From IMG/VR virus record IMGVR_UViG_3300030104_002385, positions 28,750-92,749 of that record: a stretch of DNA of 64,000 bases; one strand, given 5' to 3'. The notes under the pieces are model-generated. The model saw nothing but the letters and a program-made list of their open reading frames with translations. It made no database searches and had not been told where the DNA came from. Position 1 is the stretch's first letter; the number at the start of each line of letters is the position of its first letter. Made by a program: the position numbers and the translations under genes. This DNA comes from a virus. Of this stretch, positions 47,098 to 55,305 are shown one piece after another.

Positions 47098-47348
47098 TGT
47101 TTATTCTAACTGAAAAAGAAACTGGTGGTGTGTATTCTCAAAAGGATAAGAATAACGTTAGAACAGTAGTATCTTTTGTACAGAAGGATGATGCTGAACG
47201 TTATAAAACTCTTTTAGAGGCTAATGATTATGCACATCCATTAGAATTAATGGAGATAGATGAGGAATCTGTTGCTGTTAATTGTGATAATTTTGGTTAT
47301 CAATATTCAGTTGTTTCTAAAGATGAATTGATTATCCCTAAAGTATGA
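47097..47348 (+). CDS. DUF3110-like small protein
   Basis: 'GVYS.......V..F..KDDAERY..LLEA' pattern. Confidence 0.6.
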   Translation: MFILTEKETGGVYSQKDKNNVRTVVSFVQKDDAERYKTLLEANDYAHPLELMEIDEESVAVNCDNFGYQYSVVSKDELIIPKV

Positions 47349-49066
47349 TTACATTTGAAACTCTTAAGTGGAAAAACTTTCTTTCCACTGGTGATCAATG
47401 GATTGAAATTGATTTAACAAATTCCAAATCAACTTTAGTTGTAGGATCAAACGGTGCAGGGAAGTCTACTATGCTAGATGCTCTGTGCTTTGCTTTATTC
47501 AATAAACCTTTTCGTAAGATTACTAGATCACAGATGGTCAATAGTATCAATGAGAAGGGTACAAAAGTAGAAGTTACATTCTCTATTGGTAAGGATGAGT
47601 ATCGTGTCTTTAGAGGAATTAAACCCAATACTTTTGAAGTATATAAAAATAACAAATTAGTAGATCAAGATGCAGCAGCACGTGACACCCAAAAGTACCT
47701 CGAACAAACAGTCCTCAAACTCAACTTCAAGAGTTTTACCCAAGTCGTCATTCTTGGTTCATCCACATTTGTCCCATTCATGCAACTCGGAGCAAGTATC
47801 AGGAGAGAAGTTATCGAAGATCTATTGGACATCCAGATCTTCTCAGACATGAATACACTCCTTAAGGAGAGAATTCGTGCTTCAAATAAATCAAATCAAG
47901 ACTGTATTTATATGATGGATCGTGCAGAAGAACGTGTTTCTTCTCAGGAAAAATTAATAAATTCTTTAAAAGAAGTTAATAAAACAAGAAAGAAAGAAAA
48001 AAATGATAAAACTATATCAAATGAAAGTAAAATAAAAGAAAAAGAGTCAATAAAAGAAACAAAAAAAGACCATCTGCAAGAGGTGGAAATCTTATGTGAG
48101 GGAATGAATACACATAAACAACTACTACAATCTTTACGTGGAGATGAAAGGGAATCAAATACAGAATTAAAACGTCTTAAGAAAGAAGCAAAGTTTTTTG
48201 AAACTAATGATCAGTGTCCTACCTGTACTCAGGAGATTGGTAAGGACTTTAAGAAAAGTCGAATGTCAAGTTTAAGTAAACAAGGAGTTAAATTAACTAA
48301 GACAGTTACTAAATATAAAGAAAATATTAAAGAAGCAGTAGATAAATTAACTGAATACGAAACATTTTCTTTAGAATTGTATGAATTGCGTAGTGAAATC
48401 TCTTCTATTGAAAGAGAAATTATTCGTATAGAGAAAGAAAATCTTCAAATAGAAAAAGAACTTAACGAGTTGGATGTCAATACTCCTAACATAGATAAGG
48501 AAAAGAAACTACTTAAAGAGTTATCTGAACAATTATCACAAACTCAATCTAGTTGTGCAGAAGTTAAAAAAACTTTAGATGAGTATCAAATAGTTGGTAA
48601 TTTGTTAAAGGACTCTGGCATTAAGAAGCAAATCATTAAGAAGTATATACCAGTTTTTAATAATTTAATCAATAAGTACTTACATAGTATGGATACTTTT
48701 TTTAACTTCACATTAGATGAGGAGTTTAATGAAGTAATCAAGAGTAGATTTAGGGATGAGTTTAGTTATTCTTCTTTCTCCGAAGGTGAGAAACAGAAGA
48801 TTGACTTAGCTCTTCTTTTTACATGGAGAGAAGTAGCAAGGATGAAGAACTCTGCTGCTACTAATCTTCTTATACTTGATGAGGTATTTGATAGTTCTCT
48901 AGATGCATCTGCAACAGGAGAGTTACTTTCTATACTTTTAAAGTTAGGTGAAGGAACTAATCTATTTGTTATATCACATAAGGGTGACTTACTTATGGAC
49001 AAGTTTAAGCGTTGTCTTAGATTTGAAAAGGTCAATGATTTTTCAAAATTACTAGAGGAAGAATGA
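47345..49066 (+). CDS. gp46: Recombination endonuclease subunit gp46 (Rad50/SbcC-like)
   Basis: 'GSNGAGKST', zinc hook 'CPTC', 'FSEGEK', 'LILDEVFD', 'ISHK'. Confidence 0.96.
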   Translation: MITFETLKWKNFLSTGDQWIEIDLTNSKSTLVVGSNGAGKSTMLDALCFALFNKPFRKITRSQMVNSINEKGTKVEVTFSIGKDEYRVFRGIKPNTFEVYKNNKLVDQDAAARDTQKYLEQTVLKLNFKSFTQVVILGSSTFVPFMQLGASIRREVIEDLLDIQIFSDMNTLLKERIRASNKSNQDCIYMMDRAEERVSSQEKLINSLKEVNKTRKKEKNDKTISNESKIKEKESIKETKKDHLQEVEILCEGMNTHKQLLQSLRGDERESNTELKRLKKEAKFFETNDQCPTCTQEIGKDFKKSRMSSLSKQGVKLTKTVTKYKENIKEAVDKLTEYETFSLELYELRSEISSIEREIIRIEKENLQIEKELNELDVNTPNIDKEKKLLKELSEQLSQTQSSCAEVKKTLDEYQIVGNLLKDSGIKKQIIKKYIPVFNNLINKYLHSMDTFFNFTLDEEFNEVIKSRFRDEFSYSSFSEGEKQKIDLALLFTWREVARMKNSAATNLLILDEVFDSSLDASATGELLSILLKLGEGTNLFVISHKGDLLMDKFKRCLRFEKVNDFSKLLEEE

Positions 49067-49263
49067 AACATTTACTACTCCTTACACCCCTTCTCTTAAT
49101 GGGGTGTGGAATCGGAATGAATAATGGAGGTGGAGGATCTTTTGGATCTGGGTTCAATCCCACATTTCCTGGTGTAGCAGATGAATACACTTGCGAGTCA
49201 GCAGGTGAAAATGCTGCTGCTTACTATGCCACAGGAGAACACCCTAACCTATCAGACTGTTAA
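49063..49263 (+). CDS. Small predicted lipoprotein
   Basis: MKH + hydrophobic core + lipobox-like LMGC, then a Gly-rich linker. Confidence 0.6.
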   Translation: MKHLLLLTPLLLMGCGIGMNNGGGGSFGSGFNPTFPGVADEYTCESAGENAAAYYATGEHPNLSDC

Positions 49264-49407
49264 ATGAAATCACTATTCAAAATCTTTAGTACAAAATGGT
49301 TTAGATCTGCACCAGTTGTAGCAACTATATGGTTGACTATTACAGCAGTTATTCTTATTATGTTTAACTACTTCTTCCCTGATCTTTTATTCCATCCTAT
49401 GTCATGA
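49264..49407 (+). CDS. psaJ: Photosystem I subunit IX PsaJ (47 aa; not in ORF track)
   Basis: [47 protein letters not shown] matches PsaJ 'APV.A.IW...[16 protein letters not shown]'; abuts the upstream stop and overlaps purS (ATGA). Confidence 0.88.
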
Positions 49408-49724
49408 GATTTAAAGCAACTGTGAATGTGAAGTTGAGAGGGTCTGTATCAGATGCTGCTGGTAATGCCGTGATGAATAATGTCAAAAGAGTTGCTCCTT
49501 CTCTTGAACCTCATCTATTGAGAATTGGTAAGTGTATTGATTTTTGGTTTGACGCACCAGACTATGAAACAGCAGATAAGGAAATGTATCTTCTTAGTGA
49601 TCAGATGTTAGCAAACACTGTGATAGAAGATTGGGAATATGAATTTCATGAAACCGAAGAGACTGGCATTGGAAATATATCGAATGATAATGCTGGTACA
49701 TCAAAACACCATTTATTTAAATGA
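49404..49724 (+). CDS. purS: FGAM synthase subunit PurS
   Basis: 'F.A.V.V.LR.SVSD.AG.AV', 'LRIGK.I', 'LAN.VIEDW'. Confidence 0.85.
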
Positions 49725-49969: not shown

Positions 49970-52106
49970 CACCGAAGTAAAAGGCACTCTTGCTAAACTA
50001 TTAGCTACAGAAAATCTTACTGTAGAACATCGTAATGTTCAGACTGCTTCGTTTGATGTTAATAATCGTGTATTGACACTACCTATTTGGAAAGATGCAT
50101 CTGGTACAATCTATGACCTTCTAGTAGGACATGAAGTTGGACATGCTCTATACACACCCAATATTCCAATTGATGCTCCTAAAGGGTTTGTAAACGTCAT
50201 AGAGGATGCTCGTATTGAGCGTATGATGAAAGAGACTTATCCTGGTCTTAAGAGATCATTCTATCAAGGGTATAGAGAACTATGGCATAAAGATTTCTTT
50301 GGAGTTAGAGATGAGAATATATCAGAACTAGCATTTATTGATCGTATTAATTTATTTTTTAAAGGTAATAATGAAATAGAATTTAATGCTGAGGAACAAG
50401 TATGGGTTGATCGTGTAGCAACTACAAAAACATTTGAGGATGTCTTACAACTTTCTAGAGAGTTATATGAGTGGGCAAAGTCACAAGACAAAGCAAATGA
50501 AGAACAGCAACCTATACAGGCAGATATTGATTGGGACAATCCTGCTGCTGGTAATGAGTTAGAGCAAGAGTACCAACCTGAAAATACGGAAGAAGGTGAA
50601 GGTGAAGGTGAAGATAAAACACCTAGTAATCAAAAGTCAATTGAACAGCAACTTGATGAATTAGAAGATGCTATGTATGATGACGATATGATTGGAGGAA
50701 TGGAGGGTGGAGTTAAAGAGACTGAGAGTATTACTGATACAGCATTACAAGAGAGTTTAGAAACTTTAGTTGATGATAAAGCACAAGAGTGGAAATATCT
50801 AGATCTTCCTAAAATAGATCTTAATAAGGTGCTGGTATCACATAAAAAAATACAAGAAGATTTGAATTTTGGAATATATGGATTTACTTCTAGTAATAAG
50901 AATGATCATGATTATCGTAGAGAGAGTATTACTTATGGTGAAGATCATTACAAAACATATAAGAAGGATGCACAACGTAGTGTCAACTATCTTTTAAAAC
51001 AGTTTGAGATGAAGAAATCTGCTGATGAGTATAAGAGAGCAGCAACATCTAAGACTGGTGTTCTTGATACACAATCTCTATACAAGTATAGATTGAGTGA
51101 TGATATCTTTAAAAGAGTTACGGTAATTCCAGAAGGTAAAAATCATGGATTAGTATTCTTCCTTGATTGGTCTGGATCTATGGGTAATTGTTTATTGGAT
51201 ACTCTTAAGCAAACATATAATCTAGTATGGTTCTGTAGGAAAGCACAAATTCCATTTAGAGTTTATGCATTCCAAAATGTTTGGAATAGTAGTGGAGTTC
51301 ATCCAGCAATTACATTGGATGATGATAAAACTACACTTGGATTTGATCCTGGTTTTAGACTTCTAGAATTCTTTTCTTCAAGACAAAACAAAAAGTCTCT
51401 AGAAAAATCTATGGAGTTAGTTTACTTACAAGCATTTGCTATGAGTGGTCATAGGTTCCAGTTTGTACAAGAGTATACTTTGGGAGGCACTCCTCTTGCT
51501 GATGCTGTAATGTGTACACCACAGTTAGTTAATCTAATGAAGAGTGTTGAGAAGGTACAAAAAGTTAATGTAGTTTGCTTAACAGATGGTGAATCAAATC
51601 CATTATCAATAATTCAAGAAAGTGCTGGTTACTATACAAATGAAAGTGAATACTGCACAAGACAGTTGCGTTATGGTGGTATTAAGTATATACTAAGAGA
51701 TAGTAGAACTGGTTACAGTTGTGAAATTTCTCCTAGTCCTTACATGACCACTAAAGAAATTGTTAATTTCTATAGACAGATTACTGATTTCAATTGGATA
51801 GGTATTCGTATCTGTAGTAAGAACGAAATGAAGAGAACTCTTCGTGTTCTAGATTTTGAAGATGCAAATAGAATGGAACATCAGTGGAGTAAAGAAAAGT
51901 TCTCATCAGTTAAAAAACTATTAGGATATACTGAAGCATTCTTTATACCATCTCAGGGTATGGGTGAAGGAACTTCTGACCTTGAAGTTAAACAGAAGGG
52001 TGAAGTAGCAACGAGGGCAGAACTTAGTCGTGCATTTAAAAAGCACATGGGTTCTAAGATGACAAACAAAACTATCTTAAATAAATTTGTGGAGCAAATA
52101 GCATGA
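49959..52106 (+). CDS. Metallopeptidase-like (HExxH) plus VWA domain protein (CobT-like partner)
   Basis: 'HEVGHALYT', 'NVIEDARIE', acidic linker, MIDAS 'LDWSGSM', 'GGTPL', 'LTDGE'. Confidence 0.85.
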   Translation: MTVNTEVKGTLAKLLATENLTVEHRNVQTASFDVNNRVLTLPIWKDASGTIYDLLVGHEVGHALYTPNIPIDAPKGFVNVIEDARIERMMKETYPGLKRSFYQGYRELWHKDFFGVRDENISELAFIDRINLFFKGNNEIEFNAEEQVWVDRVATTKTFEDVLQLSRELYEWAKSQDKANEEQQPIQADIDWDNPAAGNELEQEYQPENTEEGEGEGEDKTPSNQKSIEQQLDELEDAMYDDDMIGGMEGGVKETESITDTALQESLETLVDDKAQEWKYLDLPKIDLNKVLVSHKKIQEDLNFGIYGFTSSNKNDHDYRRESITYGEDHYKTYKKDAQRSVNYLLKQFEMKKSADEYKRAATSKTGVLDTQSLYKYRLSDDIFKRVTVIPEGKNHGLVFFLDWSGSMGNCLLDTLKQTYNLVWFCRKAQIPFRVYAFQNVWNSSGVHPAITLDDDKTTLGFDPGFRLLEFFSSRQNKKSLEKSMELVYLQAFAMSGHRFQFVQEYTLGGTPLADAVMCTPQLVNLMKSVEKVQKVNVVCLTDGESNPLSIIQESAGYYTNESEYCTRQLRYGGIKYILRDSRTGYSCEISPSPYMTTKEIVNFYRQITDFNWIGIRICSKNEMKRTLRVLDFEDANRMEHQWSKEKFSSVKKLLGYTEAFFIPSQGMGEGTSDLEVKQKGEVATRAELSRAFKKHMGSKMTNKTILNKFVEQIA

Positions 52107-52729
52107 GTATTTGGGAAGGATATAGGGAAGCAGTATTTGATACGTTTCCCGATTTAAAATTTGAAAGTAATCACACAACTTGGAAGAATAAAAGAGAAGT
52201 AAATCTTACTGCTGATCTATACTCTGGTAAGTATTTTATTAAATCTAGACACGTTGATATATGGGATGGCACTATTGATATCCATAACAATATAATATAC
52301 CCTAAGACTGGACATAATCTTCCTTGCTTTGGTATGGATTTGATGGGGTTTAATAAAAAGAAAGTTATAATAGTATTTGACTTCCAACATCCAGTAGAAA
52401 ATTATCTATTGAAAGTCCCACCACTACCTCAGACAACAGAGACCTATCGTTTCTTTGAGAAGGGTAATCACTTCTCTGATAATATCTTTGTAAGGTATTG
52501 TGAGATGGATGGAGTTGATACATTCTTACCAACATTCAAATACTATCTGTCACTCTATAAGGAGATGATAGATAAAGCAAAACCTACTGGTACTGATACT
52601 AGTTTGTATAAAGATTTTGATAGTTATATGGTAAGACTAGATCCCATATCAAGTTATCTTTCCCATCAGTTTGGTAAAGATGAATCAGAAAAATTAATCA
52701 AGGAGTTCTTTTTTAGTTATGCAGAATGA
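52103..52729 (+). CDS. pebS: Phycoerythrobilin synthase PebS
   Basis: 'IYPKTG.NLPCFGMDLM.F..KKVIIVFDFQHP', 'YRFFE.GNHFS.NIFVRYC', 'LDP' as in cyanophage PebS. Confidence 0.92.
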   Translation: MSIWEGYREAVFDTFPDLKFESNHTTWKNKREVNLTADLYSGKYFIKSRHVDIWDGTIDIHNNIIYPKTGHNLPCFGMDLMGFNKKKVIIVFDFQHPVENYLLKVPPLPQTTETYRFFEKGNHFSDNIFVRYCEMDGVDTFLPTFKYYLSLYKEMIDKAKPTGTDTSLYKDFDSYMVRLDPISSYLSHQFGKDESEKLIKEFFFSYAE

Positions 52730-53411
52730 TATAGTACAAGACATAGCAGTATTACTTTCATACACTATGCAAGATCTACCTGATGTAGAACCATTAAAGT
52801 GTCCTATAGAAGAGGTTAAGAAAGATGATCTTATTATTAAAAATACAATGTATAAGACTGCTAAACTTAGGAAAGTTCATTTAGAATTAGCAGAACTTAA
52901 AGGGTTAAAAATATTACACTGTGTATTTTTTCCTGACCCAAATTACAATCTTCCTATATTTGGATGTGATATTGTTGCTACTGAGAAAACAGTAACTGCT
53001 GCTATTGTTGACATTTCTCCTATAAAGGGTTATGATAATTGGGATGATATACGAGAGATTAGTAATGAATATAATTTTAAAGGTAAAAGACCATTGCCAC
53101 TGTGGGGTGATGATGTATTCTCACCTTACTGTAAGTTCACACGTTTAAGTGAAGATATAGATACTGCAAATTTTTATTGTCTTGTTATGCAGTACCTTAG
53201 AATATATCTTCTTGAAGTTAATAAATGTGAACGAGATGCTGATTGGGTTAAGACAATGTTGAGGTTTGATGATCAAATCTATTACTGTGATCAACAGAGA
53301 AAGAATGATAAGACACGTGGTATTTTAGAAAAATTATTTGATAAAGACTTTGCAACTAATTACATAGATAATGTATTATTTGATAAACCAATAATGAGGG
53401 TTGCTCTATGA
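52719..53411 (+). CDS. pcyA: Phycocyanobilin:ferredoxin oxidoreductase PcyA
   Basis: 'RKVHLELA', 'ILHCVFFP', 'LPIFGCDIV', 'AAIVDISP', 'LPLWG..VFS', 'YC.QQRKNDKTR'. Confidence 0.9.
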   Translation: MQNDIVQDIAVLLSYTMQDLPDVEPLKCPIEEVKKDDLIIKNTMYKTAKLRKVHLELAELKGLKILHCVFFPDPNYNLPIFGCDIVATEKTVTAAIVDISPIKGYDNWDDIREISNEYNFKGKRPLPLWGDDVFSPYCKFTRLSEDIDTANFYCLVMQYLRIYLLEVNKCERDADWVKTMLRFDDQIYYCDQQRKNDKTRGILEKLFDKDFATNYIDNVLFDKPIMRVAL

Positions 53412-54231: not shown

Positions 54232-55305
54232 ATGCCAATCAAGTCTGAAGTTACTGCTCAAGAAATCATTTCTTATTTAAAGGATAAGCATGCTCCTAGC
54301 AATGAAGTTGATACTATTGCATTAAGAGCTGCTGGAAACAAATTTAAGATTTCTTATCCTACTGTTCTTAAACGTCTTAAGAAATTTAAGAAGGGTAGAG
54401 GCACTTGGGACTTGACTGCATTGGATATTGAAAAATCATATAAAGCACCTGCTGCTGAACCCGTCACACAAAAAGTTTCTTATGTTCCAGAAAGTGATCC
54501 GAACTATGTACCCTTCGGGAATGCCCCGTCTCTCAAGAAGGTTATTAATTCTGGACAGTTTTACCCTGTGTTTATTACTGGTCTTAGTGGTAATGGTAAG
54601 ACATTGGGGGTAGAGCAAACATGTGCATCTCTAAATAGAGAATTGATACGTGTTAACATTACAATAGAAACAGATGAAGATGATCTTATCGGGGGTTTCC
54701 GTCTTGTCAATGGTGACACCGTTTGGCACAACGGACCAGTTGTTGAAGCTCTCGACAGAGGGGCTGTCTTGCTCCTTGACGAAATCGACCTTGCCTCAAA
54801 CAAGATACTCTGTCTCCAGTCCGTCCTTGAAGGTAAAGGAATTTTCCTTAAAAAGACTGGAAGATACGTCAAACCAGCAGCAGGGTTCACAGTTATTGCC
54901 ACCGCAAATACTAAAGGTAAAGGTTCAGACGACGGAAGATTTGTTGGAACTAACGTGCTCAACGAAGCCTTCCTTGAAAGGTTCCCAATAACCTTTGAGC
55001 AAGAGTATCCATCACCTGTTATTGAACAAAAGATACTAAAGAATGTTGGATGTGAATTGACATTTGCTGAAAATCTGGTAAAATGGGCAGGAGTGATACG
55101 TAAAACATTCTTCGATGGAGGAGTGGATGAAGTAATCACAACACGTCGTCTAGTACACATTGCACAAGCATACACCATCTTTGGTGATCGTTTACAAGCA
55201 ATAACAAACTGTGTAAATAGATTTGATGATGATACTAAGCAATCATTCTTAGATCTTTATACTAAGGTTGACGCTGGTGAAGACACTACCGAGGAGAATT
55301 ATTAA
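54232..55305 (+). CDS. cobS: CobS-like MoxR AAA+ ATPase
   Basis: 'GLSGNGKT', 'TDEDDLIGG', 'LLLDEID', 'TANTKG.G', 'NEAFLERF', 'TRRL'. Confidence 0.9.
   Translation: MPIKSEVTAQEIISYLKDKHAPSNEVDTIALRAAGNKFKISYPTVLKRLKKFKKGRGTWDLTALDIEKSYKAPAAEPVTQKVSYVPESDPNYVPFGNAPSLKKVINSGQFYPVFITGLSGNGKTLGVEQTCASLNRELIRVNITIETDEDDLIGGFRLVNGDTVWHNGPVVEALDRGAVLLLDEIDLASNKILCLQSVLEGKGIFLKKTGRYVKPAAGFTVIATANTKGKGSDDGRFVGTNVLNEAFLERFPITFEQEYPSPVIEQKILKNVGCELTFAENLVKWAGVIRKTFFDGGVDEVITTRRLVHIAQAYTIFGDRLQAITNCVNRFDDDTKQSFLDLYTKVDAGEDTTEENY

Follow-up and report, generated by a model that had tools for sequence, protein, structure and literature searches.

Cyanophages carry photosystem genes that sustain host photosynthesis during infection, among which psaJ is, to our knowledge, the smallest and least studied. 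The locus considered here raises the question of what a phage might do with this gene on its own, in a form in which one of the residues that bind chlorophyll in photosystem I (PSI) has been replaced. It lies in a stretch of 64,000 nucleotides (the window), which is part of a 92,749-base virus record from IMG/VR estimated by CheckV to be ~52% complete. The record is that of a marine T4-like cyanomyovirus. It encodes gp46/gp47-like endonuclease subunits, a phage peptidase, two bilin reductases and a CobS-like ATPase, and its best DNA matches are the Prochlorococcus phages P-SSM2 and P-SSM5 and the Synechococcus phages S-CAM8 and Syn19. All the genes around the locus are on the + strand, and those that matter most here are listed below.

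47345..49066, + strand: gp46-like SbcC/Rad50 recombination endonuclease subunit, an upstream backbone gene (Pfam AAA_23 and SMC_N; gp46 in the Syn19 and Syn2 matches)
49063..49263, + strand: putative lipoprotein gene, 66 aa (ORF list; signal peptide and LMGC lipobox recognised by eye)
49264..49407, + strand: psaJ, 47-aa homologue of photosystem I subunit IX, viral "M-type" (Pfam, NCBIfam, 74 related IMG/VR loci, dN/dS)
49404..49724, + strand: purS (Pfam PurS, E=1.2e-14; PHROG 1282, E=2.9e-37)

As for the identity of the 47-aa ORF, it scores 55.5 bits (E=7.8e-15) against the Pfam family PSI_PsaJ (PF01701; gathering cut-off 22.4) and 77.9 bits against the NCBIfam equivalog for photosystem I subunit IX (NF002743; cut-off 69). 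Since both scores exceed curated cut-offs, the ORF is a genuine PsaJ gene borne by a phage, which bears out the original prediction that it is clearly PsaJ-like. The product has a basic N terminus, one transmembrane helix and a PD-LF-HP tail at the C terminus, and its size is within the range of ~40-50 residues. Solved PsaJ chains of 41-49 aa can be aligned with it over their full length. Its identity to Prochlorococcus PsaJ is 70-79%, and it retains nearly all PsaJ-specific positions (SAPV, TIW, T-x-T, FN and PD-LF-P). PHROGs contains no family for this product, and inspection of the sequence ahead of psaJ revealed no obvious Shine-Dalgarno motif. Scans for promoters and terminators gave 30 promoter-like sites (34.6 expected) and 2 terminator-like sites (2.7 expected), none above chance. 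A promoter-like site within psaJ, at 49333-49361, was disregarded, the scan counts being at chance level.

The gene is tightly packed between its neighbours, the lipoprotein gene and purS, as the ORF map and the Pfam and PHROG matches of purS confirm. The TAA stop of the lipoprotein ORF, which matches no Pfam or PHROG family, abuts the psaJ ATG, while the ATG of purS overlaps the psaJ TGA as ATGA. Because of this start/stop overlap, translation of psaJ and purS is probably coupled. The phage-type genes in the neighbourhood include gp46, gp47 (SbcD-like, PHROG 100), a peptidase (PHROG 459), purS and the bilin reductases. The latter are two adjacent ferredoxin-dependent bilin reductase genes at 52103-53411 (Pfam Fe_bilin_red, E=1.2e-16 and 1.6e-49); next come genes for a protein resembling 2OG-Fe(II) oxygenases and for a CobS-like AAA ATPase (54232-55305).

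That no other PSI gene accompanies psaJ in the window was part of the original prediction, and this proved true of the entire record. Profile searches of its 92.7 kb found no PsaA/B or PsaF, leaving psaJ with no adjoining psaF, and a tblastn search with all seven proteins of the P-TIM68 PSI cassette returned the psaJ ORF as the sole match. The PsaA/B and PsaF profiles likewise matched nothing in four assemblies of related single viruses, the largest of 149 kb and another of 140 kb; three of the four carry psbA. Finally, psaJ is present, and PsaA/B and PsaF absent, in a relative from IMG/VR of 202.5 kb that is rated as 100% complete. Since PSI cassette genes are absent from both the record, which covers ~52% of its genome, and this complete relative, psaJ appears to stand alone in this phage lineage. 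Elsewhere, a psaJ-carrying phage fragment (L028 record) contains a PsaF-like stretch within a 135-aa ORF (G003:C1:59896-59979; profile positions 103-129). At 17 bits it is below the cut-off, and it probably reflects mere similarity between transmembrane helices.

A lone viral psaJ is not new as such, at least as earlier work is cited. According to Hevroni et al. (PMC4511924), who cite Sharon et al. (2011, ISME J 5:1178), a single psaJ is one of three known organisations of viral PSI genes, the other two being cassettes, and Roitman et al. (PMC5019241) give the same account. Going by these citing papers, the single psaJ of Sharon et al. is, like ours, a lone gene in DNA of uncultured marine cyanophages, and the novelty that the original prediction implied for a stand-alone gene does not hold. 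What distinguishes the window copy is its placement between a lipoprotein gene and purS, which is not common to most other loci. Another phage-borne PsaJ moiety meant for host PSI is that of the psaJF-C-A-B-K-E-D cassette of P-TIM68 (NC_028955), the proteins of which are annotated as proteomics-confirmed. However, PsaJF (vPSI-7) is an in-frame fusion to an N-terminally truncated PsaF, in which the J part keeps the Glu and Arg discussed below, lacks the C-terminal His segment and runs on into PsaF, whereas the window gene is unfused, stops after 47 codons and has no cassette genes with it. Over 29 residues (tblastn), no more than 38% identity links the J part of PsaJF, with its Glu and Arg, to the window protein, whereas the product of the unfused window gene shares 70-79% identity with Prochlorococcus PsaJ; on this sequence comparison, the window gene is a separate acquisition. 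A search for longer homologues revealed no fused PsaJ but just one 105-aa protein, which probably has a wrong start. A 425-aa predicted protein (P0057) contains four tandem repeats, each with a PsaJ-like segment and Val at the Glu position, and may be a polyprotein or the read-through of a tandem array.

To place the altered residues, we aligned the window protein to T. elongatus PsaJ of known structure (PDB 1JB0). In this alignment, T27, M33, Y36 and H44 correspond to Thr22, Glu28, Arg31 and His39. Gisriel et al. (PMC7002129) name three of these T. elongatus residues, Thr22, Glu28 and His39, as the ligands of the three chlorophylls of PsaJ, which upholds the earlier claim that the Glu and His positions are chlorophyll ligands. 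The codons are as follows.

49342..49344, + strand: ACA, Thr27, equivalent to Thr22 and kept (1JB0 alignment; PMC7002129; 73 of 73 viral copies)
49360..49362, + strand: ATG, Met33, which replaces the ligand Glu28 (1JB0 alignment; PMC7002129; 17 of 73 viral copies)
49369..49371, + strand: TAC, Tyr36, which replaces Arg31 (Tyr in 73 of 73 viral copies)
49393..49395, + strand: CAT, His44, equivalent to the ligand His39 and kept (1JB0 alignment; PMC7002129; 66 of 73 viral copies)

The Thr/Glu/His triad is therefore incomplete in the window protein, which keeps Thr27 and His44 and has Met33 in place of Glu, a replacement that takes at least two base changes from GAA or GAG. The changes read in the motif by the original prediction stand for Glu>Met and Arg>Tyr, together with retention of the His, but the accompanying Gly>Val is not unusual, a PsaJ labelled as Nostoc also reading TAV.

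How widespread these replacements are among viruses can be judged from the 74 related psaJ loci found by scanning IMG/VR. Together with five GenBank single-virus records and the window, these loci provided 73 full-length viral copies. Position 27 is Thr and position 36 is Tyr in every one of them. Position 33, by contrast, is Glu in 55, Met in 17 and Gly in one, and position 44 is His in 66 and Leu in seven. Of the two substitutions whose recurrence in viral copies was in question, Arg>Tyr is thus fixed, but Glu>Met is confined to a sub-clade. In a nucleotide tree the 17 Met copies are monophyletic (support 0.89, on 141 nt), with the window copy and L007 at the base. The seven Leu44 copies, in which the His ligand is lost, form a separate sub-clade that also has Phe41 and Val46. 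Two further changes are found within the Met sub-clade and in none of the 49 Glu/His copies: Tyr37, one helical turn from residue 33, in 15 of 17, and Ser28 in 10 of 17. Elsewhere the helix hardly varies. The reading frame is intact in all 73 full-length copies, and dN/dS (Nei-Gojobori) is 0.074 across them at a dS near 1, and 0.052 within the Met sub-clade at a dS of ~1.3; for so short a gene with dS near saturation the values are rough, but their direction is clear. Because dN/dS is this low at such a dS, psaJ is an old gene kept under strong purifying selection, and this holds for the Met form too. A decaying gene, which the original prediction had allowed for, is contradicted by these values (~0.05-0.1) and by the intact frames.

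Host genomes offer two kinds of comparison. In Prochlorococcus, the native psaJ gene comes after psaF and its product has Glu, Arg and His at these positions, which shows that the phage residues are not standard there. For example, the native copy of Prochlorococcus MIT 1012 (L094) is ~70% identical to the window protein, with the same length class and the same N-terminal motif. However, it lies after psaF and has Glu/Arg/His (EFNRFVPDLLFHP), whereas the window copy has Met/Tyr/His and no psaF. MIT 1012 has three psaJ genes in all. A virus-like copy of 47 aa with Val33, Tyr36 and His44 (L081:8001-8144) is found at ~0.53 Mb. Its neighbours are a ferredoxin gene of the 2Fe-2S type, a gene of the phage family phrog_15479 (E=3e-41) and an ORF of 416 aa that weakly matches PHROG 216 (E=7.7e-4) and nothing in Pfam or NCBIfam. 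These surroundings look like a phage-derived island, the 416-aa ORF being only a hint of an integrase. The third copy, of 44 aa with Gly33, Tyr36 and Met44 (L120:1483-1617), lies among hli genes, and its type recurs in low-light Prochlorococcus (L128, L132, L135, L137, L124), with hli clusters enclosing six of nine loci of the Gly33/Met44 type.

Such accessory paralogues are common: 12 of the 18 genomes in the GTDB genus of MIT 1012 have two or three PsaJ matches. The accessory types combine Val or Ile33 with Tyr or His36 and His44, or Gly33 with Tyr or Ser36 and Met44. Like the window gene, they lack Arg at position 36 (Tyr, Ser or His instead) and Glu at position 33 (Val, Ile or Gly instead). 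They differ from it in being chromosomal; none has Met33, and in the commonest type His44 is changed to Met. With scores of 66.1 and 51 bits, host accessory copies are under the NF002743 cut-off of 69. In the tree they group with the viral copies and apart from the native ones, with a support of only 0.76 and only when the native copies are taken as the root. A set of 51 cluster representatives (50% identity), some of them truncated, has T/E/R/H as its commonest combination (27 representatives), so that the ligand triad is typical without being universal. Representatives without Glu have nearly always lost Arg as well, and Met33 is absent. The ligand change is thus absent from native PsaJ, a condition on which the original prediction depended, but it is not peculiar to phages: because accessory chromosomal psaJ has comparable replacements, replacements at ligand positions are not exclusive to viruses. 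From these groupings, the stand-alone viral psaJ was probably acquired from, or is shared with, the accessory host lineage. We found no earlier description of the ligand sub-clades or of the host accessory paralogues, Sharon et al. being represented by the papers that cite it.

What, then, might the window protein do? The reading that we favour, to which we give an even chance, is that it is a functional phage isoform of PsaJ that is swapped into host PSI, where Met33 alters one peripheral chlorophyll site. Under this scenario, phage PsaJ would be made during infection along with the products of its tightly coupled neighbours, would insert into the thylakoid membrane with its basic N terminus in the cytoplasm, and would take the PsaJ place beside PsaF in new or repaired host PSI, helping PSI to keep working while the phage replicates, in keeping with what phage photosystem genes generally do. 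The gene would come from a lineage common to cyanomyoviruses and the accessory copies of low-light Prochlorococcus, in which Arg31 has been replaced and the ligands have been replaced repeatedly. In the window protein, Met33 would weaken, retune or empty the Glu28 chlorophyll site. This site is on the outer PsaJ/PsaF edge of PSI, where antenna rings of the IsiA/Pcb type dock; the Pcb antennae of Prochlorococcus are relatives of IsiA. In the PSI-IsiA supercomplex, a distance of 4.6-5.8 Å separates the PsaJ chlorophylls Chl101 and Chl102 from carotenoids of IsiA, and these chlorophylls may relay energy inward (PMC7214436). Of the two consequences originally put forward for the phage protein, antenna coupling and donor docking, it is only for the antenna side that our survey points to support in the literature, in that same study.

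A precedent for a swap of PsaJ that changes pigments is provided by PsaJ2 of far-red light photoacclimation (FaRLiP; Fischerella thermalis, PDB 6PNJ), an alternative isoform that replaces standard PsaJ. PsaJ2 lacks the Thr22, Glu28 and His39 ligands, and PSI containing it is without the three PsaJ chlorophylls and a carotenoid (PMC7002129). However, PsaJ2 is host-encoded, ~40% identical to standard PsaJ and co-expressed with five paralogous subunits, whereas phage PsaJ has one ligand changed and is encoded alone.

Some points weigh against our favoured reading. Met is able to ligate chlorophyll, and the site may have been kept. Moreover, because 55 of the 73 viral copies keep Glu, viral function is independent of the Glu change. 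Both points lead to the main rival, in which the changes are silent; a role outside PSI and a decaying passenger gene are less likely. Under the main rival, phage psaJ would be a plain maintenance copy, standing in for host PsaJ that turns over quickly or has ceased to be made, in the way that phage psbA supplies D1, and Glu>Met and Arg>Tyr would have no effect, Met or a water molecule holding the chlorophyll. We regard this as possible but rather doubtful. It fits with the three quarters of viral copies that keep Glu, Thr and His and with the near-invariance of the remaining helix. Met is, besides, an accepted chlorophyll ligand in PSI, where it binds A0. Silent change is harder to reconcile with a replacement that requires two base changes or more and was then held at a dN/dS of ~0.05, and with Tyr37 and Ser28, which share a side of the helix with Met33 and appeared after it. 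Nor are the Glu and Arg changes ever seen in native host PsaJ. Finally, since the losses of Glu and Arg coincide among the 50%-identity representatives, they point to a coupled site rather than to drift.

A different set of alternatives arises from the company that psaJ keeps in other phages. When the window segment 49262-49407 was compared with ~85 phage and host loci, DNA similarity ended within two bases of the ORF borders, and the flanks were unrelated. Neighbours vary between phages, with no fixed partner, and the psaJ stop overlaps the next start in most loci. Because similarity stops at the ORF borders and neighbours differ, psaJ has the character of a one-gene module placed in the variable parts of cyanomyovirus genomes, and a conserved operon partner for the window gene was rejected since no neighbours are fixed across phages. 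One neighbour nevertheless recurs: in many phages of the Glu type (L063:6141-6698, L054:5331-5873, L028, L040, L065), ndhI is directly beside psaJ, either upstream or downstream, and it is full-length (TIGR00403, 309 bits; cut-off 302). This adjacency would suit a PsaJ-derived membrane peptide with another target, which blocks or redirects PSI assembly or antenna docking, or binds, e.g., NDH-1. The sub-threshold NF002743 scores of the host accessory copies would suit it as well. We nevertheless consider another target unlikely. The window protein is itself above the equivalog cut-off, the PsaJ-specific positions that it retains fit the same packing against PsaF and PsaB, and the window record has no ndhI.

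RNA libraries bear on whether the gene is expressed, which the original prediction had left in doubt. Three studies provided marine RNA libraries with contigs over the psaJ ORF, and one contig spans 49317-49465, from psaJ into purS. These are Logan contigs, most of them at 90-95% identity (the pieces are mostly from relatives at 90-99%), for which DNA carry-over is possible, and they speak to presence in the libraries rather than to the level, strand or ends of a transcript; stretches that they leave uncovered carry no information. psaJ-like sequences thus do occur in marine RNA, mostly from relatives, which is only a hint of psaJ transcription in nature. One further contig (run X3) joins 49067 to 49404, suggesting that purS comes immediately after gp46 in some relative, with neither lipoprotein gene nor psaJ. 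That the window gene is an unexpressed or decaying passenger, or a chance ORF, is highly improbable: its small size, its omission by ORF callers and its lack of a PHROG family and of an obvious Shine-Dalgarno motif would speak for this, but the PsaJ profile matches it at E=7.8e-15, all 73 frames are intact at a dN/dS of ~0.07 with dS near 1, both its ends are coupled to neighbouring genes, and RNA-library contigs lie over it.

Our favoured reading of a swapped-in isoform can be extended, tentatively, to a broader one that covers viral and host copies alike. Phage psaJ and the accessory psaJ of low-light Prochlorococcus might be one exchangeable family of swap-in subunits, in which Arg was lost and the ligands were replaced independently several times (Glu by Met, Gly, Val or Ile; His by Leu or Met), and which, when the cell is infected or under light stress, would serve to take away or retune individual peripheral chlorophylls at the PsaJ/PsaF edge. 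If this is true, the swap-in family would change how antennae of the Pcb/IsiA type feed PSI, much as the far-red PsaJ2 swap does for pigments but with a single gene.

More generally, stand-alone viral psaJ is abundant, strongly conserved and appears to move as a single-gene module. The chlorophyll-binding residue that is altered differs from one sub-type to the next, and host chromosomes contain extra copies of a similar kind. Together, the viral sub-types and host copies form a natural series of single-residue variants at one PSI pigment site, which could be used to probe the roles of the peripheral PsaJ chlorophylls, for example in antenna coupling.
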